The position numbers and the translations under genes were made by a program. This document shows positions 382 through 63,584 of a stretch of 64,000 nucleotides of DNA, piece after piece. The notes beneath the pieces are model-generated. The model did not search any database and was not told the origin of the DNA. It saw only the letters and a program-made list of their open reading frames with translations. The stretch's first letter is position 1; every line of letters begins with the position of its first letter. This DNA is from a virus (Duplodnaviria; Heunggongvirae; Uroviricota; Caudoviricetes). The stretch lies in the IMG/VR virus record IMGVR_UViG_2939521961_000011. The stretch is one strand, 5' to 3'.

Positions 382-412
382 GCATCATGTCGTCATCTTC
401 GGCGAAAACCAT

Positions 413-1165
413 TTATCTTGTCACCTTTCTCAATTGTATCTCTGCATATGCTTCTTCCTGCCAGCACTTTGTAACCAGTTTATCAATGACATCTGCATAT
501 CCTTTGTACCACTGATAATCCGTCAGGTCTGGTACCAGCTTCTGGACATGAAGCCGCGCCAGTGTGGTTGGTAAACTGCTAAACCGGTTTCCATTGCAAC
601 GCCCACAAACCTTATAAACAGGCGTGCCATGAAGCCGGGTTCTTTTTTCATCCAGGACAATACCTTTACCCTTGCACCCTCTGCATGCTGTGCTGACTTC
701 TCCCTTACCATGACAATGCTGACATAGTTCCTTCACCCACTCTTCCTTAATAACAGATTCCCCGCTTCTGGAGTGTTTCACCACCTCGCGCAATACATTA
801 TGAAATCCAGTACCAGCACAATGCTCACAGCGAGCCTTACTTGCCGCAGACCTGGAATAATCAGCAAAGGCAAAATTCACAAGGTAAGGAATGATCTGTA
901 GCCGGGTTTCTTCACTCAATTTATTCAATGTCGGGTTATCCAGTGCCATCGCGTAATTGAGCAGACCTTCAATCGCAAACTGAGGATCCTGAACACCAAC
1001 TTTTGCCAGGAATAAAGCAAACCCAAGCGGTGCTTTTGACTGCACCATCCCCTGCGCAGCCATCACATCCGTAATTGTTAAACCACCAGAGCCTGTCGCC
1101 GGTGCGTCATCGCTCAGTTTTGGAGATTTCGGGGAGTAATATTTCGGTAAGGCTTCAAGGTTCAT
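413..1165 (-). CDS. Q: Late-gene antitermination protein Q (zinc-finger type)
   Basis: N-terminus LPKYYSPKSP shared with the second Q at 46741..47562; CxxC-GxG zinc-finger repeats; sits upstream of pR'/tR'. Start taken at the internal ATG with a GGAG RBS. Confidence 0.8.
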   Translation of the reverse strand: MNLEALPKYYSPKSPKLSDDAPATGSGGLTITDVMAAQGMVQSKAPLGFALFLAKVGVQDPQFAIEGLLNYAMALDNPTLNKLSEETRLQIIPYLVNFAFADYSRSAASKARCEHCAGTGFHNVLREVVKHSRSGESVIKEEWVKELCQHCHGKGEVSTACRGCKGKGIVLDEKRTRLHGTPVYKVCGRCNGNRFSSLPTTLARLHVQKLVPDLTDYQWYKGYADVIDKLVTKCWQEEAYAEIQLRKVTR

Positions 1166-1178
1166 GCTCGTTCTCCAC

Positions 1179-2228: not shown

Positions 2229-2229
2229 G

Positions 2230-2517
2230 TTACCTCCAGATGCGCTGCTGGAATGTGCGGGACGGACGCGGTGGGCGTTCGGAATAAGGGAGCCTGGCGG
2301 AGATTATCCAGTGACGACGATCGAAGCTGAGATCTTTCTGAAACTCGTAACCACGCCTGCGGTAACACTGGATCAGCCATTCGGCCTGTTCTTCAGTGCA
2401 TAGGGGATGCTGGAACCAGTCGGTTTTAAATACGTGCGAACACCGTCCTTGCCTACTGGCAAGGGCGGCAGAATTGTGCAATCTGCTATCGTGCGCCATC
2501 GGGATCTCCGGTGGCAC
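2230..2517 (-). CDS. Small Rem-like prophage protein, function unknown
   Basis: 95-aa ORF coupled to the DUF968 gene; paralog at 48997..49269 in the same position. Confidence 0.45.
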   Translation of the reverse strand: MPPEIPMAHDSRLHNSAALASRQGRCSHVFKTDWFQHPLCTEEQAEWLIQCYRRRGYEFQKDLSFDRRHWIISARLPYSERPPRPSRTFQQRIWR

Positions 2518-2552
2518 GGTGTTTCTCAGCGACGGTTCAAGTCAGCCTGATT

Positions 2553-2825
2553 TTATAGCTGCTTCTGAATATCATCAACAGGTAATCCTGCCAACTCTCT
2601 TACCTCAGAAAGAAGAGAAAGGCTTACAACAACCTCATTACTTCGCATAACAAAACCACATTGAAAAGAACCATCACTGTTTCTGTAAACAACAACCGGG
2701 CGCGTGCTCTCATAAAACCCCGGGATCAAACTGGCTGGGATTTTCACAACACCTCCTGACGTAAAGGAAATGAAATGCATTATCGCTTCTCTCGGACTAT
2801 AACCATGAAAAGAGACGCATTTCAC
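2553..2825 (-). CDS. Hypothetical small protein
   Basis: 90-aa ORF with GTG start and weak RBS, divergent from the higB-like gene; no recognisable motif. Confidence 0.3.
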   Translation of the reverse strand: MKCVSFHGYSPREAIMHFISFTSGGVVKIPASLIPGFYESTRPVVVYRNSDGSFQCGFVMRSNEVVVSLSLLSEVRELAGLPVDDIQKQL

Positions 2826-3003
2826 TCAGTAAATCTGAGGATTTTATGCGCAAGAACAATGACTTTTTCTGTCTGCCGTTTATACAATCTGAATTACGTC
2901 TGTTTTTTGAACACCGATAAATCAGCAAGCATTCTCAAATAAAGATTGCCTCCATAGTCCACATGGTGTAACACTATGTGTTATATAAAATGCAGAGGCA
3001 GGT

Positions 3004-3375
3004 ATGCGAATTTTCAAAAACGCCTGGTTTGAACGTTTCGCTCGAAAACATCGGATTTCCGATAAATCGCTGCGCAAAATCGTGGAGCAGGCCGATAAGG
3101 GGATCATATCCGCAAATTTGGGTAGTGGTGTCATTAAACAAAGATTAGCCCGAAGTGGTGGCGGAAAATCAGGCGGTTACCGGACAATAATTTTTTACCG
3201 CGTTGCAGAAAAAGCCTTTTTCATCTACGCATACGCAAAGAATGAACGAGAGAATATCACTGCTATAGAGGAAAATGCTTTTCGAAAAGCCGCTCCCCAT
3301 GTCCTCAATCTTACTGATGAACAGCTGGCACAATTGATTCAACAAGGCCAGTTCACGGAGGTACCCAATGAGTAA
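3004..3375 (+). CDS. RelE-superfamily toxin, HigB-2-like
   Basis: GGGKSGGYR and IIFY..AY.KNE motifs typical of HigB-2/RelE-like toxins; overlaps the downstream HTH gene by 8 nt (toxin-first order). Confidence 0.7.
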   Translation: MRIFKNAWFERFARKHRISDKSLRKIVEQADKGIISANLGSGVIKQRLARSGGGKSGGYRTIIFYRVAEKAFFIYAYAKNERENITAIEENAFRKAAPHVLNLTDEQLAQLIQQGQFTEVPNE

Positions 3376-3685
3376 AAATTACCGCAGTGATGCACTTGCA
3401 TCTGTACATGAAATGATGGAGTCACTCCATGATATCGGTGCAATCACAAAACAAACTATGCGCGAATTCGATGAAACTTGTCTTCAGCCTGCGCCGGTAA
3501 TGTCTCCGGAAAGGATCCGTGCACTGCGAGAACGAGAGCATCTGTCTCAACCTGTTTTTGCCAGATACCTCAACGTCAGTAAAAACCTGATATCAGACTG
3601 GGAACGAGGAGTGAAACGCCCGGGAGGTGCAGCTCTTCGGCTTCTTTCAGTTGTCGAGAAAAACGGGATCCAGGTAATATCCTGA
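3368..3685 (+). CDS. HTH antitoxin, HigA-2-like
   Basis: 105 aa with a C-terminal helix-turn-helix region (LSQPVFARYLNVSKNLISDWERG), coupled to the upstream toxin. Confidence 0.7.
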   Translation: MSKNYRSDALASVHEMMESLHDIGAITKQTMREFDETCLQPAPVMSPERIRALREREHLSQPVFARYLNVSKNLISDWERGVKRPGGAALRLLSVVEKNGIQVIS

Positions 3686-3787
3686 TATTCTAATACAACA
3701 AAACCCGCCGAAGCAGGTTAAGTGCGGGTGCGTTGAGGATGCCTGACACATCAGAGGTGGCGAGGGATTTCTCCCTCGCCAGGTCTC

Positions 3788-3943
3788 TTACTCCTCAGGT
3801 TCGTAAGCTGTGAAGACAGCGACCTCCGTCTGGCCGGTTCGGATTCGTACCTCGCAGAGGTCTTTCCTCGTTACCAGTGCCGTCACTATGACGGTTAAAC
3901 AGATGACAATCAGGGCGATTAACATCGCCTTTTGCTGCTTCAT
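3788..3943 (-). CDS. hok: Hok-family type I toxin (HokD/RelF-like)
   Basis: 51 aa MKQQKAMLIALIVICLTVIVTALVTRKDLCEVRIRTGQTEVAVFTAYEPEE, the canonical Hok sequence; AAGGAG RBS. Confidence 0.9.
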   Translation of the reverse strand: MKQQKAMLIALIVICLTVIVTALVTRKDLCEVRIRTGQTEVAVFTAYEPEE

Positions 3944-4170
3944 AGCCTGCTTCTCCTTGCCTTTCGGCACGTAAGAGGCTAACCTACATGTGCAAAGCAT
4001 GAAATTGGCCTCAGATTAATGTTAAGCGTCCTGCAAGACGCGTAATGTTAACTGGGGCTTTTCTCTGTCTGCCTTACGGCGGCATGCCCGAGGCAGACAG
4101 CCTCAAGCACCCGCAGCAATTCTACTTAACTCTTCTTTCCCCGCAAATCATTTTATCCCCGATGGTAATG
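3944..4170. promoter_or_regulatory. hok leader and presumed Sok antisense-RNA region
   Basis: Conserved with the region upstream of the second hok (50011..50220); Hok loci carry an antisense Sok RNA and leader fold-back elements here. Confidence 0.4.
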
Positions 4171-4214
4171 TTCTCCCGATATGGGAATTCCCATATCAAG
4201 GTTAACTCAATCGG

Positions 4215-4766
4215 TTAAAGCTCCATTAATTTTCCGGCCAGTTCATCTCGTGGCATTACCAGCCATCCGCGCGATTTAAGCAAAGCCAGGGCTTCTTCAA
4301 CCGTCACCAGCTGGCCAGGCGCATAACTTCGGATGAAGGCGGTTTTATCGTCACGGATCGCCAGGTGAAAATCGATATTCATTTTTCCCATAGCCCGCTC
4401 TTTCTCGTACTGGTTGAAGTAACTGTCTTCGAGTTTTTCGAATACTTCCCACGCCTGATCGGTTTCGAGCATTTTTGCATGACGGGCTGCTCCGCGTTCT
4501 GTCCAGAGGATGAGAGTGCGGGTTTTGGGAGAAATTTTCACCTCATTTTGCGACTCGTTTAAAACTAGTCGCAAATTTTTGAGCTCATCACCAACAGCTT
4601 TAAAGAAGTGTTTTCCCTCAATAAATCGAGATTTATTTTCATGGTGATTCTGCTGTATACGGATTGCTTCTGTTCCGTAAAGGCGGGCGAGTAACTCAGT
4701 TGTGATTACAGGAATCTGGTTATAAGTGACAGGGGAAAGGTTTTTGACAGTAACTTGAGTCGTCAT
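4215..4766 (-). CDS. Phage antirepressor / Rha-KilA-type regulatory protein
   Basis: 183 aa with the N-terminal ELLARLYG...FIEGKHFF pattern of phage antirepressors; absent from the equivalent place in prophage B. Confidence 0.6.
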   Translation of the reverse strand: MTTQVTVKNLSPVTYNQIPVITTELLARLYGTEAIRIQQNHHENKSRFIEGKHFFKAVGDELKNLRLVLNESQNEVKISPKTRTLILWTERGAARHAKMLETDQAWEVFEKLEDSYFNQYEKERAMGKMNIDFHLAIRDDKTAFIRSYAPGQLVTVEEALALLKSRGWLVMPRDELAGKLMEL

Positions 4767-5037
4767 GATAACGCCCTCTGGTTGATGAATTTAACTATCA
4801 CCACCTTCAGGTCTCAATCATCAGGTGGCGAGACGTACAGGGTTGAGACTACCGGATCAACCAACCGGCCAGCCTTTCGGCTGCCCCATACGCCTCACCA
4901 TAATTCAGATGTGCGTGCGCATACGACAATAAAAAACACGCTCGCGGCGTGTGTCTGTCGCGGTTGAATATCCGGGGTCTCAATCCCGACGGTCAACTCG
5001 ACCGTGCGGTGAATATAGCCCCGGATTAGTAATTACG

Positions 5038-5121
5038 TCAACCCCAGCGGCAAATCGAATAAACCACCAGCGCTACCGCCATTGCAACTCCTGCCGTTAC
5101 GAATGCCTCAGGCCAGGTCAT
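5038..5121 (-). CDS. Conserved 27-aa hydrophobic small protein (MTWPEAFVTAGVAMAVALVVYSICRWG)
   Basis: ATG overlaps the upstream stop (ATGA); GAGGA RBS; near-identical copy at 50221..50304 differing mainly by synonymous changes. Confidence 0.5.
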   Translation of the reverse strand: MTWPEAFVTAGVAMAVALVVYSICRWG

Positions 5122-5303
5122 CGTAAACTATCCTCAGCGCCAATCAGTCCGTTTCGCTTCAGGCAGTCCATCGCTTTATACGGTAATTTGGCTGACAGGC
5201 GAAAATCACCCTGCAGCATCAGGCTTATTCCCTTATCCCGGGCTTTCGCTCTGACCGCTGCCTCGCTACGACCAATCAGACTGCCGATACTTTCGACAGT
5301 CAT
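5118..5303 (-). CDS. Small HTH-like phage protein
   Basis: HTH-like segment IGSLIGRSEAAVRAKARDKGIS; longer paralog at 51734..52015; start chosen to avoid overlap with the upstream gene. Confidence 0.4.
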   Translation of the reverse strand: MTVESIGSLIGRSEAAVRAKARDKGISLMLQGDFRLSAKLPYKAMDCLKRNGLIGAEDSLR

Positions 5304-5362
5304 CGTTCCCGCGCACTGCCGGAGTATCAGAATTTCAGCCCGGCACCACGTCTTCCACCCAC

Positions 5363-6124
5363 TCACCGCTGCTGTTCTCTGGTGGCGGTAATATCCCGGA
5401 GAATATCCCGGCACTTGTTCAGCTCCCGCAGCGCGGCGCAGACTCGCTCCCACTTCTGAACCTGACCTTTTGCCCGGCGCAGCTCGCGGTTAGCCACATG
5501 CAGCGATGGTAAAATCAGCCCATCCGGATGCTTTCTGGTGAACGACGGCTGTGACTGCACTGTGACCGCCACACTTTCCGTTTTTATTTCTTCCTGTGTT
5601 TCCGCTTCCCGGACTGGTAACGCAACACATGCTGGCTGAGGAAAGGCTTTACCATCGGTTTCCGCTACGGATGCAGCTTCCGGCTCTGCCGGTAAATCAG
5701 CGCCCGGTATGCAGTAACGAAATTTACCGTTCTGATTTACGCGTGCCAGGCGCCCCGTTGCTGTTACGACCGCCAACGTGGAAGCAACCTTGCGAATGCT
5801 AACACCGAACTTATCCGCCAGTTCCTCACACGTTTTAGCCCCATCCTGACAGATAAACTCAATCATCATGTCCGCGGTAACTTTTTGTTCGACCTCCCCG
5901 GTCAGCACATCCGGTACTTCAGACTGTGCTGGCTGTTCTTCGGTTACCCCGGATTCACCTTCACCAGCCAGAAACCAGGTGTGACCCGTTTTATCAACAA
6001 CGCCATTTTTTTTGAGTTCCCACAGTTCGTTGAGAACTTCTTCACGGCTGATATCAAGCCGCGCCGCCAGTTCAACAGAATTGGCTTTACCCATCGTTTT
6101 CAGTGCATGCAATACGGTTTCCAT
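5363..6124 (-). CDS. DUF1627-like phage protein with N-terminal winged-helix
   Basis: 253 aa, acidic linker, conserved C-terminus; paralog at 52048..52809; lies directly downstream of the DnaC-like gene. Confidence 0.65.
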
Positions 6125-6153
6125 TAAAACTTCCTCCGGATAAAAATTACTTC

Positions 6154-6894
6154 TCAGTTCCTGTGCTGGCTGACGTTCGGACGCCAGCTCTCCCAGTTAA
6201 ACGTCACCCAGCGACCACCGTTCATGGACATGCGGTCCATCACCCGCTCGCCGAGAAGTGTATTCATCGCTGCATGGTTAAGATTTGTCAGCATCCCCAC
6301 ACTGAGTAACGATGCCGTTCTGCGGTCAACAATCTGATTCAGCGTGACCTGCTCATTACGCGTATCCCGTTGCATGCCAATTTCATCCAGTACCAGCAGG
6401 TCAACGCCACACAATCCCTGCAAAAATTTTTCGCCCGAGTTTTTGTTGTCGTAGCTGCCATGTAACGCCAGCATCACATCCGCCACTGTTATCACAATCA
6501 CACTGCGACCTTTCGCCAGAAGGTGGTTGCCAATAGCCGCCGCCAGGTGGTTTTTTCCTGTGCCAGGCCTGCCACTGAAAACAAAATTCGTACAGCCGCC
6601 TTCCAGCTCTGCCGCAATGGATTTCGCCTGACTCAGGGCATGGCGCTGACCATCGTTCTGCACCCGGTAGTTACCGAACGTACACTTCCGGTGAAGCGGC
6701 TGGATACCGGAGCGGTTAATGATTTTTTCAACCCGCGTCTGATGATTCAGACGATTAACCTCCTCGCTTCGCTTACGCCCTTCAGCAAGCTGCCATTCCC
6801 GCCACTCCGTCACCGTACGGTACGGAGGGATTGCATCCTGCGGCACAAATCTGCTGACTCTTGCCAGAACACCACCTGACGTAATGTTTTTCAT
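6154..6894 (-). CDS. Replication protein, DnaC-like helicase loader (IstB-type AAA+ ATPase)
   Basis: Walker [12 protein letters not shown] and Walker B LLVLDEIG; follows the O-like gene. Confidence 0.85.
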
Positions 6895-6900
6895 GATGCG

Positions 6901-7866
6901 CTACCCCCTGAAACCCGGCGGAATTTCGGTATCCGGTTCAGAAATATGATTCACGCAACGCTGCGCGGGACCACGCCACAGTCGAATAACCAGTTCATCC
7001 CATTTCTCACGGAGTTTTTCCGGGCTCTTGATGTTTTTTATCCAGAACGGATCCCGTTGTGCCCGGCTGAACATTTCGCAAATTTGTCTGTGACTTCTTC
7101 CATCCAGCATCCGCATTGTGCGCACGTCATTGGCCCACGCCGTCCAGTTGGGCTCTTTCGGTCGCGTGATCTCACCATCGTCACTGGCAGCCTGTTCGTA
7201 CAGGTTTACAACCCGCCCCCAGATCCACTGCGCACATGTCAAATCCTCCCGGGTTCCCCACTGGCGTTTTTTCACGCTGAACACAACTGCATCAGGATGG
7301 CGGGTTAAAAACGCCTGTTCAGCCGTCAACTCGTCCGGTTGCGAAGCGTCCGGACAAGAGAGTTTTTTATTCTCTGTTGTATTCTCTGTTGTATTCTCTG
7401 TAGGATCATCGGGCCATTTTGACCTGATGACATTGGGCCGTTTTGAACCAATGGAACGTTTCATTTTGACCTCTTCCATCGTGTCATTTTGACCTGATGG
7501 AGTGGCGCATTTTGACCCGATGGATTCGTTCACTTTGCCATCATCTAAAAGCGCGCTATCGTAGTTAATTGTGTAAAAATTAGTCATATCACGCTTCGAT
7601 TTATTGAGCTTTTCGCTACGCAAAAGCCCCAGCGCTTTCAGACTTGCAAACGCACGCTTTAACGTTGACTCTGACCAGAACGGAAACTGTTCCAGCCATT
7701 GTTCCGTTGTGTTGTAAATCCAGCGAACGCCATCACATTCCATGCCGGAACTGGTATCCCTCAACCAGTAATGCAGTTGCTGCAACACAATGGCTTCGTT
7801 TAAACCAATCTTCATCGCCAGCTGTGTGTTTATAACCAGCGGGCGTTCAGCAAAAAGAAGGCTCAT
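6901..7866 (-). CDS. Replication initiator O-like protein
   Basis: C-terminal domain shared with the second copy; iterons lie inside the ORF; TENTTENTTEN coding repeat. ORF-track start is GTG at 7908; first ATG at 7866. Confidence 0.8.
   Translation of the reverse strand: MSLLFAERPLVINTQLAMKIGLNEAIVLQQLHYWLRDTSSGMECDGVRWIYNTTEQWLEQFPFWSESTLKRAFASLKALGLLRSEKLNKSKRDMTNFYTINYDSALLDDGKVNESIGSKCATPSGQNDTMEEVKMKRSIGSKRPNVIRSKWPDDPTENTTENTTENKKLSCPDASQPDELTAEQAFLTRHPDAVVFSVKKRQWGTREDLTCAQWIWGRVVNLYEQAASDDGEITRPKEPNWTAWANDVRTMRMLDGRSHRQICEMFSRAQRDPFWIKNIKSPEKLREKWDELVIRLWRGPAQRCVNHISEPDTEIPPGFRG
7411..7525. repeat. Replication-origin iterons inside the O-like gene
   Basis: Five copies of CATTTTGACC(T/C)GATGG-like repeats spaced 23-24 bp, followed by an AT-rich stretch; lambda ori has the same layout inside O. 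Confidence 0.6.
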
Positions 7867-8368
7867 AATTCCATCCGGCTTTTTGTTGGTACTGGTGACG
7901 ATAGGCACGCTTGAAAGCGATTGCTTTTTCTATAAGCTCGTCTGTCTCACGTTCCACAACAGCTGGATCTGCAAAAAGCAGCCCGGACTCCACCACATCG
8001 CCATATTCTTTGTTTAACCCGGCAATCATGTACGTAATGCTTTTTCCGTCAGTAATTTCGCGGTACAACCTGAAATCACTAATCCGGATAGCCTCCATAA
8101 TTGCCGGAATCAGCGCCGTGAATTTTTCACGCTTATCCCTGGTGTCGATAGCCTTCCAGCGTTCGAATATCTTCACCCGGTTAACGCCCAGTGCCCGTTG
8201 ATCAACCTCGCCATCATTAAACGTGATGCGTTGAACATCGATGTTCGGGCGTTCTTTCAGAGCCCAGAATGCTTCCGTGATTAATATCGTCGCCTGTTCC
8301 TGTGTCATTCCTGGTCGGCACACCCAGGCATCCAGAGCCTCACAAACCTGTTCAGGGGTGATTTTCAT
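7847..8368 (-). CDS. YdaT-family regulatory protein (cII-position gene)
   Basis: 173 aa sharing the MKI...W...K.F.RW..DT.D...PAI...YREI pattern with the 141-aa copy at 54568..54993; sits between cro-like and O-like genes. Confidence 0.55.
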   Translation of the reverse strand: MKITPEQVCEALDAWVCRPGMTQEQATILITEAFWALKERPNIDVQRITFNDGEVDQRALGVNRVKIFERWKAIDTRDKREKFTALIPAIMEAIRISDFRLYREITDGKSITYMIAGLNKEYGDVVESGLLFADPAVVERETDELIEKAIAFKRAYRHQYQQKAGWNYEPSFC

Positions 8369-8582
8369 TGTTCAACCGCCCCGCCCGCTTTGCCTTACGA
8401 TATTCGTCATAAACTTTGGGGTCGTACTGAAGTTCCCCGCCGGATGCCTCTTGCAGGCGCATCGCGCGACCTTCAGGTACTAGCTCCCCTTTCCAGCTAT
8501 AAAGCGAAGCCAAACGAATACCAGCAGCTTGTGCAAGTTTTGTTTTTGAACCGAAATACAAAAGTGCGTCAGTTTTAAGCAT
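8352..8582 (-). CDS. dicC: Cro-like repressor, DicC-like
   Basis: 76 aa small HTH protein divergent from the repressor gene; sequence matches my recollection of Qin DicC. Confidence 0.75.
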   Translation of the reverse strand: MLKTDALLYFGSKTKLAQAAGIRLASLYSWKGELVPEGRAMRLQEASGGELQYDPKVYDEYRKAKRAGRLNNENHP

Positions 8583-8597
8583 TTAAAGCACCTTGAT

Positions 8598-8615
8598 TGT
8601 TAGCCATGACTAACA
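8598..8615. promoter_or_regulatory. Operator palindrome in the dicC/dicA divergent promoter region
   Basis: TGTTAGCCATGACTAACA inverted repeat; related half-sites TTAGTCATGGC recur at about 9111 and 9147. Confidence 0.5.
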
Positions 8616-8665
8616 AAATAGATGTTAACAAAAACATAGTCAATAAGATTTAGCATTAGCTAACT

Positions 8666-9073
8666 ATGGATACAAAAAATTTAACCATTGGCGAACGCAT
8701 TAGATATCGCCGAAAAAACCTCAAATACACCCAAAGGTCTCTTGCTAAAGTCCTGAAAATTTCTCACGTATCGGTTTCACAATGGGAGCGGGATGATAGC
8801 GAACCTACAGGAAAGAATCTTTTTGCCCTCAGCAAAGTACTGCAGTGCTCGCCAACATGGATTCTATTTGGCGATGAAGACAAGCAGCCATCACCACCTA
8901 TTGAGGAGCCAGTTGCTCTATCCCCCAAAGAACATGAGCTCCTTGAGCTTTTTAATGCATTGCCTGAATCAGAACAGGATGCTCAGCTCACCGAGATGCG
9001 CGCCCGAGTAAAAAATTTCAACAAACTCTTTGAAGAGTTATTAAAAGCCCGTCAACGAACAAACAAAAGATAA
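8666..9073 (+). CDS. dicA: Immunity repressor, DicA-like (HTH_XRE)
   Basis: 135 aa; HTH GERIRYRRKNLKYTQRSLAKVLKISHVSVSQWER; divergent from the cro-like gene with operators between. Confidence 0.85.
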   Translation: MDTKNLTIGERIRYRRKNLKYTQRSLAKVLKISHVSVSQWERDDSEPTGKNLFALSKVLQCSPTWILFGDEDKQPSPPIEEPVALSPKEHELLELFNALPESEQDAQLTEMRARVKNFNKLFEELLKARQRTNKR

Positions 9074-45570: not shown

Positions 45571-45784
45571 TATTCCTCCCGGCCGGGATAGTGTATTAAA
45601 TCAGATATGGAGTGGGCTGTAGTCCGGAAGCCTGAATGACACACGGGGACTACAGCCCAAGAAATGAAAAAAGGCCACGCAGTTGCGCAGCCTGATAAAC
45701 CCTGGTTAAAATCCACACGATAACAACACAACAATATCAGTATCTCATGCTATTGCCCGAACCCATTCGGGCATTTTTTACCCA

Positions 45785-45816
45785 TAAAAAAGCCCCTCCG
45801 GAGAGGGGCATGTTTG
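45785..45816. terminator. Bidirectional rho-independent terminator
   Basis: gcccctc cgga gaggggc hairpin flanked by an A-run and a T-rich stretch. Confidence 0.4.
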
Positions 45817-46140
45817 CATGCACATTCTTTTTCTTGCATGGTGCCGGGTGCCTCCCGGTGAATTCAGTATCAGCACCTGAATCCGCGATTATCACATATA
45901 CCTGGTTGCTGATTGCCCCTCCGCACAGGGGGATTCACCATGCAGTAGTATTTTTAATAAACAGTAAACAAAAAAATCAAGCATTATGCAGGCTGTTTCT
46001 TTTTATCACCGGCCACAGCAATACCACAATGCCGCAGACCAGCACCCCATCCGCCAGCACCGACATGATTCTGCTGGTGAAATCCACCATCACCACCAGA
46101 AACAGCAGGAGTGCAGCCACAGCCAGGCGCAGTTTTACCG

Positions 46141-49854: not shown

Positions 49855-50010
49855 TTACTTCTCAGATTCGTAGTCTACGAAGACAGCGACCTCCGTCTGA
49901 CCGGTTCGGATTCGCACCTCGCAGAGGTCTTTCCTCGTTACCAGTGCCGTCACTATGACGGTTAAACAGATGACGATCAGGGCGATTAACATCGCCTTTT
50001 GCTGCTTCAT
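49855..50010 (-). CDS. hok: Hok-family type I toxin
   Basis: 51 aa MKQQKAMLIALIVICLTVIVTALVTRKDLCEVRIRTGQTEVAVFVDYESEK; conserved leader/Sok region upstream. Confidence 0.9.
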   Translation of the reverse strand: MKQQKAMLIALIVICLTVIVTALVTRKDLCEVRIRTGQTEVAVFVDYESEK

Positions 50011-50220
50011 AGCCTGCTTCTCCTTGCCTTTCGGCACGTAAGAGGCTAACCTACATGTGTTCAGCATGGATTGAGCCTCAGATTAATGTTAAGCGTCTTG
50101 CAGGACGCGTAATGTTAACTGGGGCTTTTCTCTATCTGCCGTTGGTGTTCATGCCCGAGGCAGATAGCCTCAAGCACCCGCTGCAATTCTACTTAACTAT
50201 CCTTTTCCCGCAAACCGTTT

Positions 50221-52834: not shown

Positions 52835-53566
52835 TCACATACCCTGACGTCCAACGTTTGACCGCCAGCTCTCCCAGTTAAAATTCACCCAACGACCACC
52901 ATTCATGGTCATACGGTCCATCACCCGATCTCCGAGGAGTGTGCTCATCGCTGCGTGATTCAGGTTCGTCAGCATTCCGACACTACGCATCGAAGCCGTT
53001 CTGCGGTCGACTATCTGGTTCAGCGTGACCTGCTCGTTGCGCGTATCCCGCTGCATGCCAATTTCATCAAGGACCAGAAGGTCAACTCCACAAAGCTCCT
53101 GTAAAAATTTTTCCCCGGACTGGCCGTTGTCGTAGCCGTCATGCAACACGCTCATGACATCGGACACGGTGACGATAATCACGCTTCTCCCCTTCGCCAT
53201 CAGCCGATTGCCAATCGCTGCTGCCAGGTGATTTTTACCGGTACCAGGTTTACCGCTGAACACGAAGTTTGTACATCCGGTCATCAATTCATCGGCAATG
53301 GATTTCGCCTGGCTCAGAGCATGGCGCTGACCGTCGTTCTGCACCCGGTAGTTCCCGAATGAGCACTTCCTGTGAAGCGGCTGGATGCCCGCACGGTTCA
53401 GGATTTTTTCAACCCGCACCTGATGATTCAGGCGGTTAATCTCCTCGCTGCGTTTTCGTCCTTCAGCAAGTTGCCATTCCCGCCACTCCTCCACCGTCCG
53501 GTACGGTGGAACCGCCCCCCTGTGGTGCAAGTCTGCGAATACGTTCAAGAACCCCAACTGCCGCAA
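52835..53566 (-). CDS. Replication protein, DnaC-like helicase loader
   Basis: Walker [12 protein letters not shown] and Walker B LLVLDEIG; paralog of 6154..6894. Confidence 0.85.
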   Translation of the reverse strand: MRQLGFLNVFADLHHRGAVPPYRTVEEWREWQLAEGRKRSEEINRLNHQVRVEKILNRAGIQPLHRKCSFGNYRVQNDGQRHALSQAKSIADELMTGCTNFVFSGKPGTGKNHLAAAIGNRLMAKGRSVIIVTVSDVMSVLHDGYDNGQSGEKFLQELCGVDLLVLDEIGMQRDTRNEQVTLNQIVDRRTASMRSVGMLTNLNHAAMSTLLGDRVMDRMTMNGGRWVNFNWESWRSNVGRQGM

Positions 53567-53582
53567 TGTTTTTCATGACACG

Positions 53583-54545
53583 TCACCCCCTGAATCCCGG
53601 CGGTATTTCAGTGTCCGGTTCAGAAATGTGATTCACGCAACGCTGCGCGGGCGAACGCCCCAGGCGGATAACCAGTTCATCCCATTTTTCCCGGAGTTTT
53701 GCCGGACTCATGATGTTTTTTACCCAGAACGAATCCCGCTGGAGACGCCCAAACATTTCACAAATTTGTCTGTGAGTTCTGCCATCCAGCATCCGCATTG
53801 TCCGCACGTCATTGGCCCATGCAGTCCAGTTGGGTTCTTTCGGTCTCGTGATCTCGCCATCATCGCTGGCCGCCTGCTCGTAAAGACTCACGATTCGTCC
53901 CCAGATCCACTGTGCGCACACCAAATCTTCCTGACTTCCCCACTGGCGTTTTTTCGCACTGAACACAACCGCGTCAGGGTGTCGGGTTAAAAAATCCTGT
54001 TCAGCCGTCTGCGGGTCCGGTTGCGAAGCGTCCGGACAAGAAGATCTTTTATCTGACGGATCAGGTTTTAATACTGACGGATCGGGGTCAATCATCGCCC
54101 CCCTAATCGGCAGTTTGTTATCAACAGTTGATCCATCAAAATTTGACGGGTCAACCGTTGAGGGGGCAATATTTGACGGGTCAACTGTTAACGGGTCATT
54201 TTTTGCCGGGCTAATTTTTCTTTTCGGTTTATATGACTCACGCGCCGCCGCCGCAGCTGCTTCGAGTTTTTCCACATTAAGCCGATAGATATTGCTTACA
54301 TTACGCCCACCGACCTTACGCTCTTCCTTCGTCAGCCAGCCCTCTTTCGCCAGTTCTGCAATAGCCGATTTCACTGTGGATTCACTTCTTGCACCGATCT
54401 GACGCCGGATAGTTTCAATGGCAGGCCATGACACGCCCTCGTCATTGCTGTAGTCTGCAAGACGGGCCATAACCGCCACCCTGGATAAGATCATGCCGGT
54501 GAAGGCGCACCCTTCCCAGACAAGACCATGAAGCTTGCTGCTCAT
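53583..54545 (-). CDS. Replication initiator O-like protein
   Basis: C-terminal about 150 aa nearly identical to 6901..7866; different winged-helix N-terminal domain; iterons inside the ORF. First ATG used. Confidence 0.8.
   Translation of the reverse strand: MSSKLHGLVWEGCAFTGMILSRVAVMARLADYSNDEGVSWPAIETIRRQIGARSESTVKSAIAELAKEGWLTKEERKVGGRNVSNIYRLNVEKLEAAAAAARESYKPKRKISPAKNDPLTVDPSNIAPSTVDPSNFDGSTVDNKLPIRGAMIDPDPSVLKPDPSDKRSSCPDASQPDPQTAEQDFLTRHPDAVVFSAKKRQWGSQEDLVCAQWIWGRIVSLYEQAASDDGEITRPKEPNWTAWANDVRTMRMLDGRTHRQICEMFGRLQRDSFWVKNIMSPAKLREKWDELVIRLGRSPAQRCVNHISEPDTEIPPGFRG
54040..54230. repeat. Replication-origin iterons (second type) inside the O-like gene
   Basis: Repeated TTTGACGGGTCAAC / CTGACGGATC units followed by an AT-rich stretch. 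Confidence 0.5.
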
Positions 54546-54567
54546 AAAACCCCCGAACACCGTGCTT

Positions 54568-54993
54568 TTAGTGCATCACCACAGCATTCCCTGCCGGGCC
54601 GCCGCGATTCATCTGGTCATACAAAACAACCGCTGACGCAACAAAATCATCGACATCCTTCACCAGCCGATCCCTCCGTTCGACGATCTCACGGTAATAT
54701 TCAGAACTGTGGCTGCGCATACGGGCCACCAGCAAAGGCGGCATCGCCTTTTCGATCGCCGGTAACAGAGCCTGCATTTTTTCAACAGCATCAGGGGTGT
54801 CTTTATCCAGCCAACGGAAAATTTTCTGGGTATTACGGGCCAGGGCTTCCGGATGGCTGTCGTCATACAGTTCCGGGAACGTCATTCCCAGCTCGAAATA
54901 CGCTTTGGTAATTTTCGCAGCCGGTACTTTTTCGCCGTCCGGATGCGCCCAGACATTCATCGCCATGCGGATGTGTTCATGCTTGATTTTCAT
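54568..54993 (-). CDS. ydaT: YdaT-family protein
   Basis: 141 aa starting MKIKHEHIRMAMNVWAHPDGEK, matching my recollection of Rac YdaT; located after the cro-like gene. Confidence 0.65.
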   Translation of the reverse strand: MKIKHEHIRMAMNVWAHPDGEKVPAAKITKAYFELGMTFPELYDDSHPEALARNTQKIFRWLDKDTPDAVEKMQALLPAIEKAMPPLLVARMRSHSSEYYREIVERRDRLVKDVDDFVASAVVLYDQMNRGGPAGNAVVMH

Positions 54994-55292
54994 GAATCAA
55001 CTCCATCAGATAAGCATGCACTACAATCACCTTCAGCATGAACTACATGTGTTTGCCCCAAACGAATGCCGCTCGCATACTCAGGCCAAATAAGCTCCCA
55101 ATCATGAGGTCGTAGCTCCGCCCTACTTACTTGGCCTTCCGTCGCAGATTCGATCATAAGGGCGCGGGTTGGAGATATAGCTGTTCGTCCAGACGCCATT
55201 TGCGATAAGTAAGATGGCGATACACCAAGTCTGGCCGCGAATTTCTTAGCATCACCAACCCTTAATGATTTAATAAACTCTTTTAATGTCAT
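54990..55292 (-). CDS. ydaS: Cro-like HTH protein YdaS
   Basis: 100 aa with HTH AKKFAARLGVSPSYLSQMASGRTAISP; divergent from the repressor gene. Confidence 0.7.
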   Translation of the reverse strand: MTLKEFIKSLRVGDAKKFAARLGVSPSYLSQMASGRTAISPTRALMIESATEGQVSRAELRPHDWELIWPEYASGIRLGQTHVVHAEGDCSACLSDGVDS

Positions 55293-55380
55293 ACCTTCCT
55301 CGGTTTAGTGTTTTTTTGCGAGTTTAGTGTTTAATAAACCATTAAGTCAAGTATTTGCTTGTTTAGTGATTACTAAAGAT
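55293..55380. promoter_or_regulatory. Immunity-region operators (GTTTAGTG repeats)
   Basis: GGTTTAGTGTTTTTTT, GAGTTTAGTGTTTAAT and GTTTAGTGATTACTAAAG repeats between the divergent cro-like and repressor genes; similar repeats at about 56325-56350. Confidence 0.45.
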
Positions 55381-55761
55381 AATTACCACATGCAAAAAAA
55401 AGAAATTCGCCGTTTACGTCTCAAGGAGTGGTTTAAAGATAAAACTCTGCCACCCAAAGAGAAGAGCTACCTATCTCAACTAATGAGTGGGAGAGCCTCG
55501 TTTGGAGAAAAGGCTGCCAGAAGAATAGAGCAAACATACGGGATGCCGGAAGGGTATCTGGATGCGGAATACGCAGAACAACCGGGGGTTTCTCCACCAC
55601 ATGCAGGGTTAACGTCTAATCAACTGGAATTATTGCAGATTTTTTCAGCCTTCCCTGAGGATGAGCAACGCCAGATAATCAGCGAGTTAAAGCAGAAAAA
55701 AGAATCAATGGAAGATCTCATAGCGAGATGGATTGCGGCGCAAAAATGCCGCCGCGCCTGA
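55327..55761 (+). CDS. racR: Rac-type immunity repressor RacR-like
   Basis: 144-aa ORF (true start may be the internal MQKKEIRR); HTH-containing, divergent from ydaS; Rac gene order. Confidence 0.7.
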   Translation: MFNKPLSQVFACLVITKDNYHMQKKEIRRLRLKEWFKDKTLPPKEKSYLSQLMSGRASFGEKAARRIEQTYGMPEGYLDAEYAEQPGVSPPHAGLTSNQLELLQIFSAFPEDEQRQIISELKQKKESMEDLIARWIAAQKCRRA

Positions 55762-55781
55762 GTTATAAAACCGGAGGAAAC

Positions 55782-55973
55782 ATGAATAGAGCCCTTTCAC
55801 CAATGGTTTCTGAATTTGAAACCATTGAACAAGAAAACAGTTACAACGAATGGCTGCGTGCGAAAGTAGCAACGAGCCTTGCAGATCCGCGCCCAGCAAT
55901 TCCCCATGACGAAGTTGAGCGCAGAATGGCAGAACGCTTTGCTAAGATGCGCAAGGAACGGAGCAAGCAGTAA
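55782..55973 (+). CDS. ParD-like antitoxin
   Basis: 63 aa; stop overlaps the start of the downstream ParE-like toxin (TAAAATG). Confidence 0.55.
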   Translation: MNRALSPMVSEFETIEQENSYNEWLRAKVATSLADPRPAIPHDEVERRMAERFAKMRKERSKQ

Positions 55974-55974
55974 A

Positions 55975-56253
55975 ATGTTACCCGTGTTATGGCTTGAAAG
56001 CGCAGATACCGACCTAGATGATATAACTAGTTATATTGCTCGTTTCGACATAGATGCGGCTGAACGCTTATGGCAGCGATTAAGGGGTTGTGTGCTGCCG
56101 TTATCCGAACATCCGTATTTATACCCACCAAGCGACAGAGTACCTAGCTTGCGTGAGATTGTAGCCCACCCTAACTATATAATTCTATACCGCGTAACAA
56201 CATCAAGCGTTGAAGTAGTAAACGTGATCCACGCAAGACGCCAGTTTCCCTAA
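55975..56253 (+). CDS. ParE/RelE-family toxin
   Basis: 92 aa with the ParE-type pattern ADTDLDDITSYIARFD...YRVTTSSVEVVNVIHARR. Confidence 0.65.
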   Translation: MLPVLWLESADTDLDDITSYIARFDIDAAERLWQRLRGCVLPLSEHPYLYPPSDRVPSLREIVAHPNYIILYRVTTSSVEVVNVIHARRQFP

Positions 56254-56539
56254 CTTTCACTACCAATAGAAACATAACAACCGCAACGACTTTATCAAAA
56301 GCGTTGTGTTTGTTATGTCCCGCGGTTTAGTTTTTACTTGACTTAAGTTTAATGTTTATTAAACTAAAAATACCACCCCGCCCCACAGAACGCAGGGAAA
56401 TACTTCGAGTTACCCGGCAGTGGTCAGGGGTTAAGTAGCCAGCCCGAGGCGTATGAACATGACGGCAGGGTTCAACTTTAATAACTATGCAGCAGGTTTT
56501 TGTTCCGCTACCCCGGCGTTAAGGGGAAATGAGGTCAGC

Positions 56540-56692
56540 ATGGATACTATCGATCTTGGCAACAACGCATCTCTGGTGTACGGCGTGTTTCCAAACCAGG
56601 ACGGCACGTTCACCGCAATGACGTATACCAAAAGCAAAACGTTTAAAACCGAAAATGGTGCCCGTCGCTGGCTTGCCAAAAATACCAGCTAA
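56540..56692 (+). CDS. DUF1391-type small protein (YdaF/YdfA-like)
   Basis: 50 aa MDTIDLGNNASLVYGVFPNQDGTFTAMTYTKSKTFKTE...; paralog of 9240..9392. Confidence 0.65.
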   Translation: MDTIDLGNNASLVYGVFPNQDGTFTAMTYTKSKTFKTENGARRWLAKNTS

Positions 56693-56884
56693 ACCATTTA
56701 TTGGATTAATTCAATATTCTTGCTGTAGGGGTATAGCCGAGGCCACCAAAGCCCGGAGGTGGTGAAATAAAACCGGGCACAACACGAAGGCGCATTTCCG
56801 GTATCCATAAAGAGTCGGTCTTGTCTGTTAAATTTAAATGGTGGGAGTGCGCCTCCGGTTGTGAATAACAACACTGCTGTGTGT

Positions 56885-56937
56885 AGTCTTGGCGGCATCA
56901 GTTTTTTCTTGAAGTTCGACTGATGTCCGCCCTTTTT
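56885..56937 (+). ncRNA. DicF-like small RNA variant
   Basis: Shares the 5' GGCGGCATCAGTTTT and the terminator end with DicF but the internal segment differs; followed by the same conserved downstream leader as in prophage A. Confidence 0.3.
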
Positions 56938-57112
56938 AAAGTGAATTTTGTGATGCGGTGAATGCGGCTAAGCGCACGCGGCACAGTTAAAAGTCATGTT
57001 AGTCCTTATTGGTTTGGGTGGGAAAGCCGACTGTAATTGTTAACTGGTTGCAGTCACCTGGAGGCACCAGGCACCGCATCAACAAAGTTCATTTGTAAAA
57101 ATGGAGATAATT

Positions 57113-57334
57113 ATGATTGCACATCACTTCGGAACTGATGAAATACCACGTCAGTGTGTGACTCCTGGTGATTATGTTCTTCATGAAGGCCGGACATATA
57201 TCGCCTCGGCAAACAATATTAAAAAGCGAAAACTTTATATTCGTAACCTGACTACAAAAACATGCATTTCTGACTGCATGATTAAAGTCTTCCTCGGTCG
57301 TGATGGTTTACCTGTAAAGGCGGAGTCATGGTGA
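57113..57334 (+). CDS. kilR: Cell-division inhibitor KilR
   Basis: 73 aa [46 protein letters not shown]..., matching my recollection of Rac KilR. Confidence 0.75.
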
Positions 57335-57504
57335 TGACTAAGAAAATAAAATGTGCTTACCACCTTTGCAATAAAGGAATTGAAGAAAGCAAAAGCATTA
57401 AAAGACCACTTCATTTCATGCGTGGAGTTATCCCAACGACGGAAATGAAAAAATATTGTAGTGAAAATTGTGCCGAAAAAGACCAGATGGCACACGAACT
57501 TTAA
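57334..57504 (+). CDS. ydaE: YdaE-like small zinc-binding protein
   Basis: 56 aa [15 protein letters not shown]...KYCSENCAEKDQMAHEL; ATG overlaps the kilR stop (TGATG). Below the ORF-track size cut-off. Confidence 0.55.
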   Translation: MTKKIKCAYHLCNKGIEESKSIKRPLHFMRGVIPTTEMKKYCSENCAEKDQMAHEL

Positions 57505-61449: not shown

Positions 61450-61656
61450 ATGACAAAAATTATGAGATATGACGATGTTAAACCATGTCCGTTTTGTGGT
61501 TGTCCATCTGTTACAGTGAAAGCAATTTCAGGATATTACCGGGCAAAATGCAACGGATGCGAATCCCGAACTGGCTATGGTGGAAGTGAAAAAGAAGCAC
61601 TCGAAAGATGGAATAAACGAACTACTGGAAATAATAATGGAGGTGTTCATGTATAA
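61450..61656 (+). CDS. ralR: Restriction alleviation protein Lar (RalR)
   Basis: MTKIMRYDDVKPCPFCGCPSVTVKAISGYYRAKCNGCESRTGYGG... with Cys4 zinc ribbon, as Rac Lar. Confidence 0.8.
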   Translation: MTKIMRYDDVKPCPFCGCPSVTVKAISGYYRAKCNGCESRTGYGGSEKEALERWNKRTTGNNNGGVHV

Positions 61657-61837
61657 AATAACTGCCACTATTGAAAAAGAAGGTGGCACTCCTACTAACT
61701 GGACAAGATATTCAAAATCTAAATTAACGAAATCAGAATGCGAAAAAATGCTCTCAGGGAAAAAAGAAGCAGGCGTGTCCAGAGAGCAGAAAGTAAAGCT
61801 GATAAATTTTAATTGCGAGAAACTTCTGTCCTCGTGA
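61637..61837 (+). CDS. ydaC: YdaC-like small protein
   Basis: Small ORF overlapping the lar 3' end, in the Rac order lar-ydaC-xis-int; start uncertain. Confidence 0.5.
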   Translation: MEVFMYKITATIEKEGGTPTNWTRYSKSKLTKSECEKMLSGKKEAGVSREQKVKLINFNCEKLLSS

Positions 61838-61937: not shown

Positions 61938-62225
61938 ATGGCAATGAATCTTGTGACACTCAAAACGTGGGGAAAACTCAGATATCCGGATAACCCACCA
62001 TCAATATCAACGCTGAGACGATGGGCAAGGAATGGAAACATTTATCCTGCACCTGAACTACACGGGAGGAGTTACAGGGTGGTTCCGGAAGCTTTCTATA
62101 TCAACCCAAATAAGGTTGATACCGATATAACACACCATCAGCCTAATGGGCGACAAGGGAGAGACAGTCCGTTACTGGAGAAGTTAAAACATGCAGCGGA
62201 AAAAATACGATCCCAATTTACCTAA
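61938..62225 (+). CDS. xis: Excisionase (lambda Xis-like)
   Basis: 95 aa with the W.K..YPDNPPSISTLRRWARNGNIYPAP..HGRSY pattern resembling lambda Xis; overlaps the int start. Confidence 0.6.
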   Translation: MAMNLVTLKTWGKLRYPDNPPSISTLRRWARNGNIYPAPELHGRSYRVVPEAFYINPNKVDTDITHHQPNGRQGRDSPLLEKLKHAAEKIRSQFT

Positions 62226-63306
62226 AAACTTAACATATCGAAGGAGGGACAAAGCATATTACTGGCGCAACCCTCTGACGAAAGAAGAATTTACACTAGG
62301 TAAAATTTCAAGAAGAGATGCAGTAGCGCAGGCAATTGAAGCAAATCATTATATATACAAAAACTACTCTCCTGCTGCCTTAATTGAAAAACTAAAAGGG
62401 TTCGACTCATTTACTATGGCAGACTGGATTGAACGTTACAAAACGATTCTTATAAGGAGAAAAGTGTCCAGAAATACTTATAAAATTCGGGTAAATCAAC
62501 TGGAGACAATAAAAGAAAAATTAGGAGGGGTTTTACTGACAGAAATAACCACTCGCCATATTGCCGAGTTTCTTGATTTGTGGATTGAAGGAGGGAAAAA
62601 CACGATGGCAGGATCAATGCGTTCTGTGTTATCTGATATGTTCCGCGAGGCCATTGTTGAAGGACGTATATCTCAAAATCCAGTAACGCCAACAAGAGCA
62701 CCGAAAATAGTAGTTACAAGAGAACGGCTGAAACTAAAGACATACAACTGCATCAGGGAGGCAGCAGATCAACTTCCGACATGGTTCCCATTAGCTATGG
62801 ACTTAGCCCTTGTAACAGGACAACGTCGCGAAGACATAACAAATATGCGGTTCAGTGAGATTTATGATGATCGTCTCCACATCAGGCAAATTAAGACAGG
62901 AATGATGATTGCTATCCCCCTGTCACTCAGCCTTCCTGTCGCTGGTTTACGACTTGGTACAGTAGTTGAACAGTGCCGCATGGTAAGTAGGGGGGATTAT
63001 CTAATCAGTGCCGGGATTAGAAAAAACAGCCCTGACGGCAGCATTCACCCGGACGGCCTGACAAAGAAATTTGTCGCAGCCAGAAAATTAACAGGTATCC
63101 AGTTCAGTGAAAACCCACCAACTTTTCACGAGATCAGAAGCCTGGCTGGACGATTGTACAAAGAAACATGTGGGGAAGAATTTGCTCAACGTCTACTTGG
63201 CCACACATCGGAGAAGACAACAAAAATGTATCTTGATGAGAGAGAAAAAACGTACTACTGCTCTGATTTTAACGTAAATGGATTGTTAAATGTGTTTTGG
63301 TTGTGA
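62191..63306 (+). CDS. int: Lambda-family tyrosine integrase
   Basis: 371 aa; N-terminus [27 protein letters not shown] and C-terminus [15 protein letters not shown]...[13 protein letters not shown] parallel lambda Int. Confidence 0.9.
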
Positions 63307-63584
63307 TATAACCAAAAAAGACCGGAATACAGAAATTCGAGTAAATTTCGAGTAATTTCGGGGAGACGTTTGCAACTAATTGATTTTAAATACAATTAAA
63401 AAAAGACCGAATACGATTCCTGTATTCGGTCCAGGGAAATGGCTCTTGGGAGAGAGCCGTGCGCTAAAAGTTGGCATTAATGCAGGCTTAGTTGCCTTGC
63501 CCTTTAAGAATAGATGACGACGCCAGGTTTTCCAGTTTGCGTGCAAAATGGTCAATAAAAAGCGTGGTGGTCATCAGCTGAAAT

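Follow-up and report, generated by a model that had tools for sequence, protein, structure and literature searches.

The DNA analysed in this study is a stretch of 64,000 nucleotides, which is referred to as "the window". Two + strand open reading frames, 55782-55973 and 55975-56253, were found exactly where an earlier reading made from the sequence alone had placed a coupled pair of genes for proteins of 63 and 92 amino acids. The first of these, paaA2 (55782..55973, + strand), begins with an ATG at 55782, carries a GGAGG 6 nt upstream of this codon, and ends with a TAA at 55971-55973; its 63-aa product is MNRALSPMVSEF...KERSKQ. The second, parE2 (55975..56253, + strand), extends from an ATG at 55975 to a TAA at 56251-56253 and encodes a 92-aa protein, MLPVLWLESADT...ARRQFP. 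The stop codon of paaA2 and the start codon of parE2 are separated by a gap of one base.

PaaA2 is identical at 62/62 aligned residues (E=5.5e-37) to the protein in PDB entries 3ZBE and 5CW7, and also in 5CZE, and its profile match is the Pfam family PaaA2 (PF21217, E=1e-19). PF21217 was the sole Pfam match at E<=10, and no ParD, RHH or other DNA-binding domain was detected at that threshold. The paaA2 product (RefSeq WP_001302048.1, a protein common to O26 and O157) is an intrinsically disordered antitoxin. The sequence-only reading had called it ParD-like; since PaaA2 is devoid of a DNA-binding domain, this is wrong at the level of the family. The other half of that reading, a toxin of the ParE family, was borne out by a profile search: ParE2 matches Pfam ParE_toxin (PF05016) over its full length (E=2.9e-16, 60 bits versus a cut-off of 23), and is identical at 91/92 residues to PDB 5CW7_B, the protein of the O157:H7 prophage CP-933P (E=5.7e-59), the single change being G58S. 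The RelE/StbE subfamily model TIGR02385 gave 20.7 bits, which is under its cut-off of 27.9; ParE2 fits the ParE model clearly better than this subfamily. Judging from matches that lie far beyond chance, paaA2 and parE2 are real genes.

Directly upstream of the pair lies paaR2 (55390..55761, + strand), the leaderless first gene of the operon, whose product starts with MQKKE and is, according to PDB and the literature, an analogue of the CI repressor. The toxin-antitoxin (TA) module therefore does adjoin the repressor in the immunity region, as had been proposed. Residues 1-66 of the 123-aa PaaR2 are identical to PDB 7NKV and 8C3K, which were deposited as 'Phage repressor protein CI'. The spacer between paaR2 and paaA2 is 20 nt, and the promoter scan called no separate promoter there. 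On the other side of the repressor gene, and on the - strand, are ydaS (54990..55292), encoding the Cro analogue (Pfam YdaS_toxin and HTH_3, RefSeq, PMC8630535), and ydaT (54568..54993), encoding the CII analogue that activates a PRE-like promoter toward paaR2-paaA2-parE2 (Pfam YdaT_toxin, PDB, PMC8630535, PMC9986795). YdaS has the RefSeq accession WP_000172738.1, which is the same in O26 and O157:H7, and YdaT is identical at 140/140 residues to PDB 8BT1, the YdaT protein of CP-933P; Pfam names both of them 'toxins' still. All of the sequence-testable features of the three-component PaaR-PaaA-ParE family were found, i.e., ParE encoded last, a short coupled PaaA, and an HTH-containing PaaR upstream. 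The region from 54500 to 57400 is a 100% match to E. coli O26:H11 genomes. The locus is a paaR2-paaA2-parE2 three-component type II TA operon in a lambdoid prophage of an O26:H11-type strain. As side observations, the window is collinear with O26:H11 strain 11368 only beyond ~43 kb, its first 25 kb are covered to more than 90% by none of the complete genomes, and the prophage is defective elsewhere, its DnaC-like gene being frameshifted.

The spacer between ydaS and paaR2 is exactly 97 bp, matching the published length, and is identical to that in O157:H7 strain 86-24. Repeats and the promoter scan define it as the OR region (55293..55389), with GTTTAGT-type repeats and divergent PR and PRM promoters; three of the five GTTTAGT cores in the 64-kb window fall within it. 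The scan called a PR-type promoter, TTGACT-18-TAAACT, on the - strand (55350->55321) and directed toward ydaS. The OR repeats (55298-55377) recur in inverted orientation at 56320-56364, ~990 bp away (repeats I1/I3 and D1/D2), and bracket the three-gene operon. There, the OL operators and the PL promoter (56320..56365, + strand), located by the promoter scan and the repeats, lead into the ydaF-like/kilR/recET arm. PL itself (TTGACT-16-TAAACT, 56338-56365, + strand) has the same hexamers as PR, points away from the operon, agrees with the published PL933P, and is identical in sequence to that of O157:H7. Thus, the locus has what a lambda-like switch has: divergent repressor and cro-like genes, an operator-rich OR, and a second OL/PL beyond the repressor operon. 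The high-affinity operator of YdaT, OM, recognised by its published motif (PMC9986795), is found at the ydaS/ydaT junction (54983..55000); the exact TTGATTN6AATCAA is present in one copy in the 64-kb window, the chance expectation at up to one mismatch being 0.28.

Downstream of parE2 and before OL/PL, an inverted repeat (I2) with 22-nt arms forms a hairpin (56272..56318, + strand), for which folding gave -24 kcal/mol and a z of -5.1. It has no T-tract, and the consensus terminator scan gave no call. This hairpin is likely to act as an operon-end terminator or as a transcript stabiliser, although the former role can only be suggested since the T-tract is missing. A conserved leader follows PL (56373..56527, + strand); it was delimited by alignment to Rac and forms the left edge of the exchangeable immunity cassette described below. 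No Rfam family matched this leader at E<=1 except for a sub-threshold DicF-like match farther downstream. The idea that the leader is a structured RNA (put-like or a small RNA) was dropped, there being no Rfam family and a fold z of +1.2.

Much is already known about the equivalent locus of O157:H7. As cited in later work, paaR2-paaA2-parE2 was first described in the E. coli O157:H7 cryptic prophage CP-933P/Sp12 (Hallez et al. 2010). According to Jurenas et al. 2021 (PMC8630535), the three genes constitute one operon and PaaR2 is an analogue of lambda CI with leaderless translation; instead of forming a TA pair, YdaS and YdaT correspond to Cro and CII. Both PaaR2 and YdaS bind to operators in the 97-bp spacer and at PL933P beyond the operon, and both repress PL933P, PaaR2 being a repressor of PR- and PL-type promoters; YdaT activates a PRE-like promoter, and the locus as a whole is bistable (PMC8630535). 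PaaA2, which lacks a DNA-binding domain, is a substrate for degradation by ClpAP and ClpXP, and ParE2 induces the SOS response (PMC8630535). Toxicity, its neutralisation by the antitoxin and post-segregational killing have likewise been demonstrated with the O157 proteins (PMC8630535). An unstable mini-F plasmid was stabilised by the O157 locus as efficiently as by ccdAB, ParE2 activation was absent in both states of the switch in single-cell work, and stabilisation of the prophage immunity region in nature was proposed by the authors (PMC8630535). The paaA2-parE2 pair has been said to 'replace' rexA and rexB (PMC9986795).

Within 54489-56375 (~1.9 kb), the window differs from O157:H7 strain 86-24 by three substitutions only: a synonymous one in ydaS, one giving V67 in PaaR2 (G67 in 86-24), and one (base 56146, G->A) giving G58S in ParE2. 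The OR region, the hairpin and OL/PL contain none of the three, and with so few base differences, conservation extends to the OR operators, OL/PL and the YdaT site alike. PaaR2 (WP_001169687.1) is one residue off the O157 protein, being 122/123 identical to that of 86-24. The changed residue is part of a linker just past the crystallised N-domain, and this linker also differs in phage Evi (EI for GV). As for ParE2, the column of position 58 in the distant crystallised ParE proteins 6X0A, 3KXE and 5CEG, to all of which phmmer gave weak matches, holds A, A and S, and serine is therefore within the range tolerated by the family. The paaA2 and parE2 open reading frames are both intact and do not differ among many O26 genomes. 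Because residue 58 is tolerated, residue 67 of PaaR2 lies in a variable linker, and the reading frames are intact, we infer with good confidence from the 99-100% identity that the O26 alleles would function like the O157 proteins, although G58S might alter the toxicity of ParE2. Beyond these two substitutions, both conservative, nothing is particular to this locus except for a mosaic junction to a Rac-type left arm, which is itself common.

The sequence-only reading had assigned the locus to a Rac-type immunity region, with the pair at the positions of ydaG and sieB and the TA module replacing an exclusion gene. Comparison with the Rac prophage of K-12 does not agree with this. The left arm does have counterparts in K-12 Rac by tblastn: KilR (96%), YdaE (73%), RacC (96%), RecE (84%), RecT (99%), RalR (98%) and YdaF (86%). 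However, K-12 RacR has no tblastn match in the window, and identity to the Rac proteins is only 40% for YdaS and 31% for YdaT. Rac homology resumes at a ydaF/ydfA-like DUF1391 gene (56540..56692, + strand; tblastn, Pfam and RefSeq), which is the first gene of the PL arm and lies outside the TA module. The Rac DNA between racR and ydaG (7466-7613 of the Rac sequence L002) is 87% identical to 56373-56527 of the window, directly downstream of PL; this PL leader is common to Rac, CP-933P and RMDEC364 in spite of their differing immunity cassettes. As the racR-ydaG DNA of Rac aligns downstream of PL, the TA pair is on the repressor side, inside the repressor operon, and its being a replacement for ydaG and sieB was rejected. 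At the ydaG gap (~56527/56549), 162 bp in Rac correspond to ~21 bp here, and at the sieB gap (~56671/56718), ~540 bp in Rac correspond to ~46 bp. Two independent indels beyond PL account for the absence of ydaG and sieB.

One part of the earlier reading, namely that no sieB-like open reading frame is present, is correct. Searches with K-12 SieB and YdaG (tblastn) found nothing in the 64 kb, and none of the open reading frames between parE2 and kilR matched Pfam SieB. A hidden sieB was rejected as both searches were empty and the positive control, K-12 SieB, worked (1.5e-31). What the paaA2-parE2 pair fills is the slot between the repressor gene and PL, which is the slot of rexAB in lambda, and the correct analogy is cI-rexA-rexB, as has been published (PMC9986795). 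In K-12 Rac, the interval from the repressor to PL contains no gene. The window also includes a second prophage, in which a DicA-type repressor gene (8666-9073) is directly followed by a DUF1391 gene, so this slot is empty as well; the C-terminal domain of that repressor resembles that of PaaR2. From the comparisons made here, the immunity region is best described as a CP-933P cassette joined to a Rac-type left arm, and is itself not Rac-type.

With a threshold of at least 80% coverage, the three-gene locus was detected in 595 of the 5,426 complete E. coli genomes (~11%), at >=99% identity in 579 of them; O157:H7, O26, O111 and ATCC 25922 are among the genomes bearing it. On its own, the paaR2 gene matched 593 complete genomes; for the TA pair, the number was 633. 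Comparison of the numbers for paaR2 and for the locus (593 versus 595) indicates that paaR2 essentially never occurs without the TA pair. Recent common descent might be enough to explain such tight linkage, 573 of the 593 paaR2 copies being >=99% identical. In ~38 genomes, related paaA-parE genes are found under other regulators. One of them, strain RMDEC364, has the order PaaR2-type repressor, a second PaaR paralogue (153 aa, with a canonical HTH and 30% identical to PaaR2), paaA-parE, and an IS66 element. One deposited phage genome, that of Escherichia phage Evi, has the whole cassette at 95.4% identity; its parE2 is intact and left unannotated. The O26-type junction, i.e., the cassette plus a Rac-type arm, was seen in 213 complete genomes. 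In O157:H7, the same cassette leads into an arm of the Qin/dicB type, and the two arrangements part at ~56530, after the PL leader. The CP-933P immunity cassette is thus cleanly an exchangeable unit, bounded on its left by the PL leader and present on at least two left arms (Rac-type and Qin-type).

Very probably, this TA operon, which rides in the transcript of a CI-like repressor, is an addiction device stabilising the immunity region or the prophage. In the lysogenic (RAE2-on) state, a leaderless PRM-type transcript would yield PaaR2, PaaA2 and ParE2; PaaR2 would repress PR and PL, and the disordered, Clp-labile PaaA2 would fold around ParE2 and thereby neutralise it. As PaaA2 cannot bind DNA, transcription of the operon would be controlled by the prophage switch, being set by PaaR2 versus YdaS at OR and OL together with YdaT at the PRE-like promoter. 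When the cassette is lost or replaced, PaaA2 would decay and the stable ParE2 would be freed, and it is this release that would make the module an addiction device. Freed ParE2, which is nucleoid-associated and SOS-inducing, would then kill or arrest the cell. A stabilising role had also been suggested in the sequence-only reading, and experiments on the near-identical O157:H7 locus have demonstrated addiction (PMC8630535). Overall, then, that reading was right about the ParE toxin, the TA pair and the stabilisation, and went astray on the ParD family, the Rac-type region and the ydaG/sieB site. That stabilisation of the prophage is the function selected for is something we infer. As ParE2 activation was seen in neither state of the switch, both its trigger in nature and the benefit under selection are hypothetical.

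A different view, which is compatible with addiction, is that the pair mainly serves in abortive infection or exclusion in the manner of rexAB. A superinfecting phage might shut off transcription of the host or prophage or activate Clp proteolysis, PaaA2 would decay, and ParE2 would kill the cell before the cycle of the invader is complete. The rexAB slot, co-transcription with the repressor gene in lysogens, a prophage without sieB, and the occurrence of the cassette in the sequenced phage Evi are all consistent with such a role, as is the fact that other TA systems serve in phage defence (reviewed in PMC10440598 and PMC7167474). However, the PADLOC models gave zero matches for PaaR2, PaaA2 and ParE2 at E<=0.01, and membership in a catalogued defence system was rejected on this basis. 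The literature searched contained no anti-phage report for PaaA2-ParE2, and where PaaA2 and abortive infection were both named, the two terms were unconnected among the matches listed, including the two reviews just cited. ParE2 activation was seen in neither switch state, and sieB and ydaG are absent via indels elsewhere, not through replacement. We therefore regard both this role and the route leading to it as unlikely. Slightly less likely still is the specific form in which paaA2-parE2 would be a repressor-coupled device for abortive infection or heteroimmune exclusion, fired by PRM shut-off or by recombination of the cassette; if true, it would represent the first ParE-type TA system with a defined anti-phage trigger.

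Three further explanations concern the origin and the state of the module. PaaR2 might primarily be the module's own regulator (a 'split antitoxin'), having arrived with the pair instead of being the resident repressor. The second PaaR between the repressor and paaA-parE in RMDEC364 does suggest that the TA genes can travel with a PaaR of their own, and the near absence of paaR2 without the pair points the same way. Yet PaaR2 is encoded exactly at the position of cI/dicA, opposite the divergent, cro-like ydaS, its operators lie on both sides of the operon, at OR and OL/PL, it represses PR- and PL-type promoters, and its C-terminal domain is common to DicA-type prophage repressors, including that of the second prophage in the window, so that this origin is improbable. 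The O26 module could also be a decaying relic in which ParE2 G58S is inactive and the genes merely hitch-hike with the repressor. Decay would fit with the single non-synonymous difference between this toxin and the allele that has been characterised, and with the frameshift in the DnaC-like gene of the same prophage. Against it, many O26 genomes have both reading frames intact and without a difference, the antitoxin shows 100% conservation, and G58S swaps one small residue for another at a position where other ParE structures have A, A and S; decay is therefore very improbable. Finally, it is hardly credible that this is a canonical two-gene ParD/ParE system, autoregulated by its antitoxin and merely adjoining the repressor, even though the toxin is clearly of the ParE family and NCBI calls the antitoxin RelB-family. 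PaaA2 gave no ParD, RHH or DNA-binding match at E<=10 and has been published as lacking DNA binding, the 20-nt paaR2-paaA2 spacer contains no called promoter, and the operon has been published as a three-gene unit under PaaR2, YdaS and YdaT. An antitoxin without an RHH domain in a three-gene, externally regulated operon refutes membership in the canonical group.

The addiction operon of the repressor transcript is already known: paaA2-parE2 is not new but an ordinary system that has been studied genetically, structurally and at the single-cell level since 2010. Further work on the CP-933P paaR2-paaA2-parE2 genes is reportedly that of Sterckx in 2012-2016. As a discovery, the locus carries little weight, since it has long been characterised and is common in complete E. 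coli genomes. The analysis is of use for annotation: in O26, RefSeq labels paaR2 as 'hypothetical protein', paaA2 as 'RelB family antitoxin', and parE2 as 'RelE/ParE family toxin', and in phage Evi parE2 carries no annotation.

In comparison with canonical ParD/ParE systems (RK2, Caulobacter ParDE1, Vibrio ParDE2), the toxin fold and family (PF05016) are shared, and in both cases an unstable antitoxin neutralises the toxin by wrapping. The differences are that PaaA2 has no RHH domain and that regulation is exerted by a separate repressor, i.e., an RHH antitoxin autoregulating a two-gene operon is not what is present here. In addition, the canonical toxin poisons DNA gyrase, whereas ParE2 has been reported neither to bind GyrA59 nor to inhibit gyrase. 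The lambda cI-rexA-rexB arrangement is similar in having accessory genes between the repressor and OL/PL that are expressed from PRM in lysogens. However, RexAB functions in exclusion and abortive infection and has no sequence relation to PaaA2-ParE2, which has been demonstrated to act in addiction only.

K-12 Rac shares with the prophage described here the order of O/P-like replication genes, ydaT, ydaS and a divergent repressor gene, as well as the PL arm with ydaF, kilR, ydaE, racC, recET and ralR (73-99% at the protein level). It differs in its own RacR, ydaG and sieB, which are absent here, in lacking a gene between the repressor and PL, and in its integrase and integration site, which here adjoins ryeA/ryeB. 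The CP-933P/Sp12 locus of O157:H7 has the same three genes, the divergent ydaS-ydaT, the 97-bp OR, OL/PL, the hairpin and the YdaT operator, with PaaA2, YdaS and YdaT being 100% identical, ParE2 identical at 91/92 residues, and PaaR2 at 122/123. The two prophages differ in their left arms, which is Rac-type here (the ydaF-like gene, kilR, ydaE, racC, recE, recT and ralR) and of the Qin/dicB type in O157:H7 (ydfC, dicB, a DUF1482 gene and an exonuclease gene).

Transcription from PL, the promoter beyond parE2 that reads into the ydaF-like/kilR/recET arm, would enter a leader of about 150 nt (56373-56527) lying directly downstream of it, which is 87% identical to that of K-12 Rac. This leader is common to Rac, to CP-933P (the O157:H7 prophage with a near-identical paaR2-paaA2-parE2 locus) and to strain RMDEC364, the immunity cassettes of which are unrelated, and it is the left recombination boundary of the immunity cassette. 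It matched no Rfam family, and its predicted fold was not unusual (z = +1.2).

The window also provides a comparator for the insertion of the paaA2-parE2 pair between the repressor gene and the PL arm. A second lambdoid prophage has its early region at 400-15400, with an O-like gene (6901-7908), a YdaT/CII-like gene (7847-8368) and a Cro/DicC-like gene (8352-8582) on the minus strand and a DicA-type repressor gene (8666-9073) on the plus strand, as well as a DUF1391 gene (9240-9392), the DicF sRNA (10591-10642), DicB (10712-11005), an exonuclease (11283-13745) and an integrase (14089-15384). No gene lies between the repressor and DUF1391 genes of this prophage, and therefore it represents an "empty slot" within the same stretch of DNA.

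In RMDEC364 (NZ_CM177020.1, 2670-4270), paaA-parE is preceded by two tandem PaaR paralogues, the first a PaaR2-type protein of 123 aa (77% identity to PaaR2) and the second a protein of 153 aa with a canonical HTH (30% identity to PaaR2), and an IS66 element is inserted immediately after parE. This tandem arrangement hints that the toxin-antitoxin pair is able to move together with a PaaR of its own, and that one of the two copies may have disappeared from loci of the CP-933P type. In phage Evi (LR597642.1), parE2 is intact at 6397-6675 and carries the G58 allele found in O157, yet it is unannotated in the deposited genome; the paaR2 homologue is annotated there as a "putative regulator" and the paaA2 homologue as a "hypothetical protein", with nothing further.

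Besides paaA2-parE2, three type I toxin-antitoxin loci are present in the window: two hok/sok loci, with sok antisense RNAs at 3938-4112 and 50005-50179, and RalA with ralR (61462-61833). Thus, the lambdoid prophage bearing paaA2-parE2 combines this pair with hok/sok and ralR/ralA. Known prophage small RNAs were also found, namely AgvB (anti-GcvB) and STnc100 (45718-45969), and the C4 antisense RNA and IsrK (4821-5005). A DicF-like sequence upstream of kilR (56878-56932) scored 42.8 bits, under the Rfam gathering score of 48, and is located roughly where the sRNA KilS is annotated in K-12 Rac.

The DnaC/YdaV-like replication gene (52835-53576) of the prophage bearing paaA2-parE2 is frameshifted, as residues 1-18 and 24-246 of K-12 YdaV match different frames; RefSeq labels the gene in O26:H11 str. 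11368 "frameshifted". Because of this lesion, the prophage is probably replication-defective. The genes for the small RNAs SraC/RyeA and SdsR/RyeB (63394-63538) lie about 90 bp past its integrase (62191-63306), and hence it is integrated beside ryeA/ryeB, not at the site used by Rac in K-12, whose integrase, IntR, is unrelated.

When window positions 1-43000 were compared with O26:H11 str. 11368 (NC_013361.1), collinearity was found to begin only at about 43078. Upstream of this point, the structural-gene region is 89-97% identical to that of 11368 with shifted coordinates, whereas the first 16 kb or so is prophage DNA in the window but chromosomal genes (kdgR...pphA) in 11368. The window therefore derives from an STEC strain other than 11368. 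No complete genome of the collection covered more than 90% of positions 1-25000. The second prophage meets the prophage bearing paaA2-parE2 within 14089-17161: its integrase gene, together with a DinI-like gene (15457-15804), abuts an NleC-type T3SS effector gene (Peptidase_M85; minus strand, 16178-17161) as well as the tail-fibre end of the other prophage. This arrangement is similar to a published pattern in which one prophage has inserted into the effector region of another (PMC8112680).
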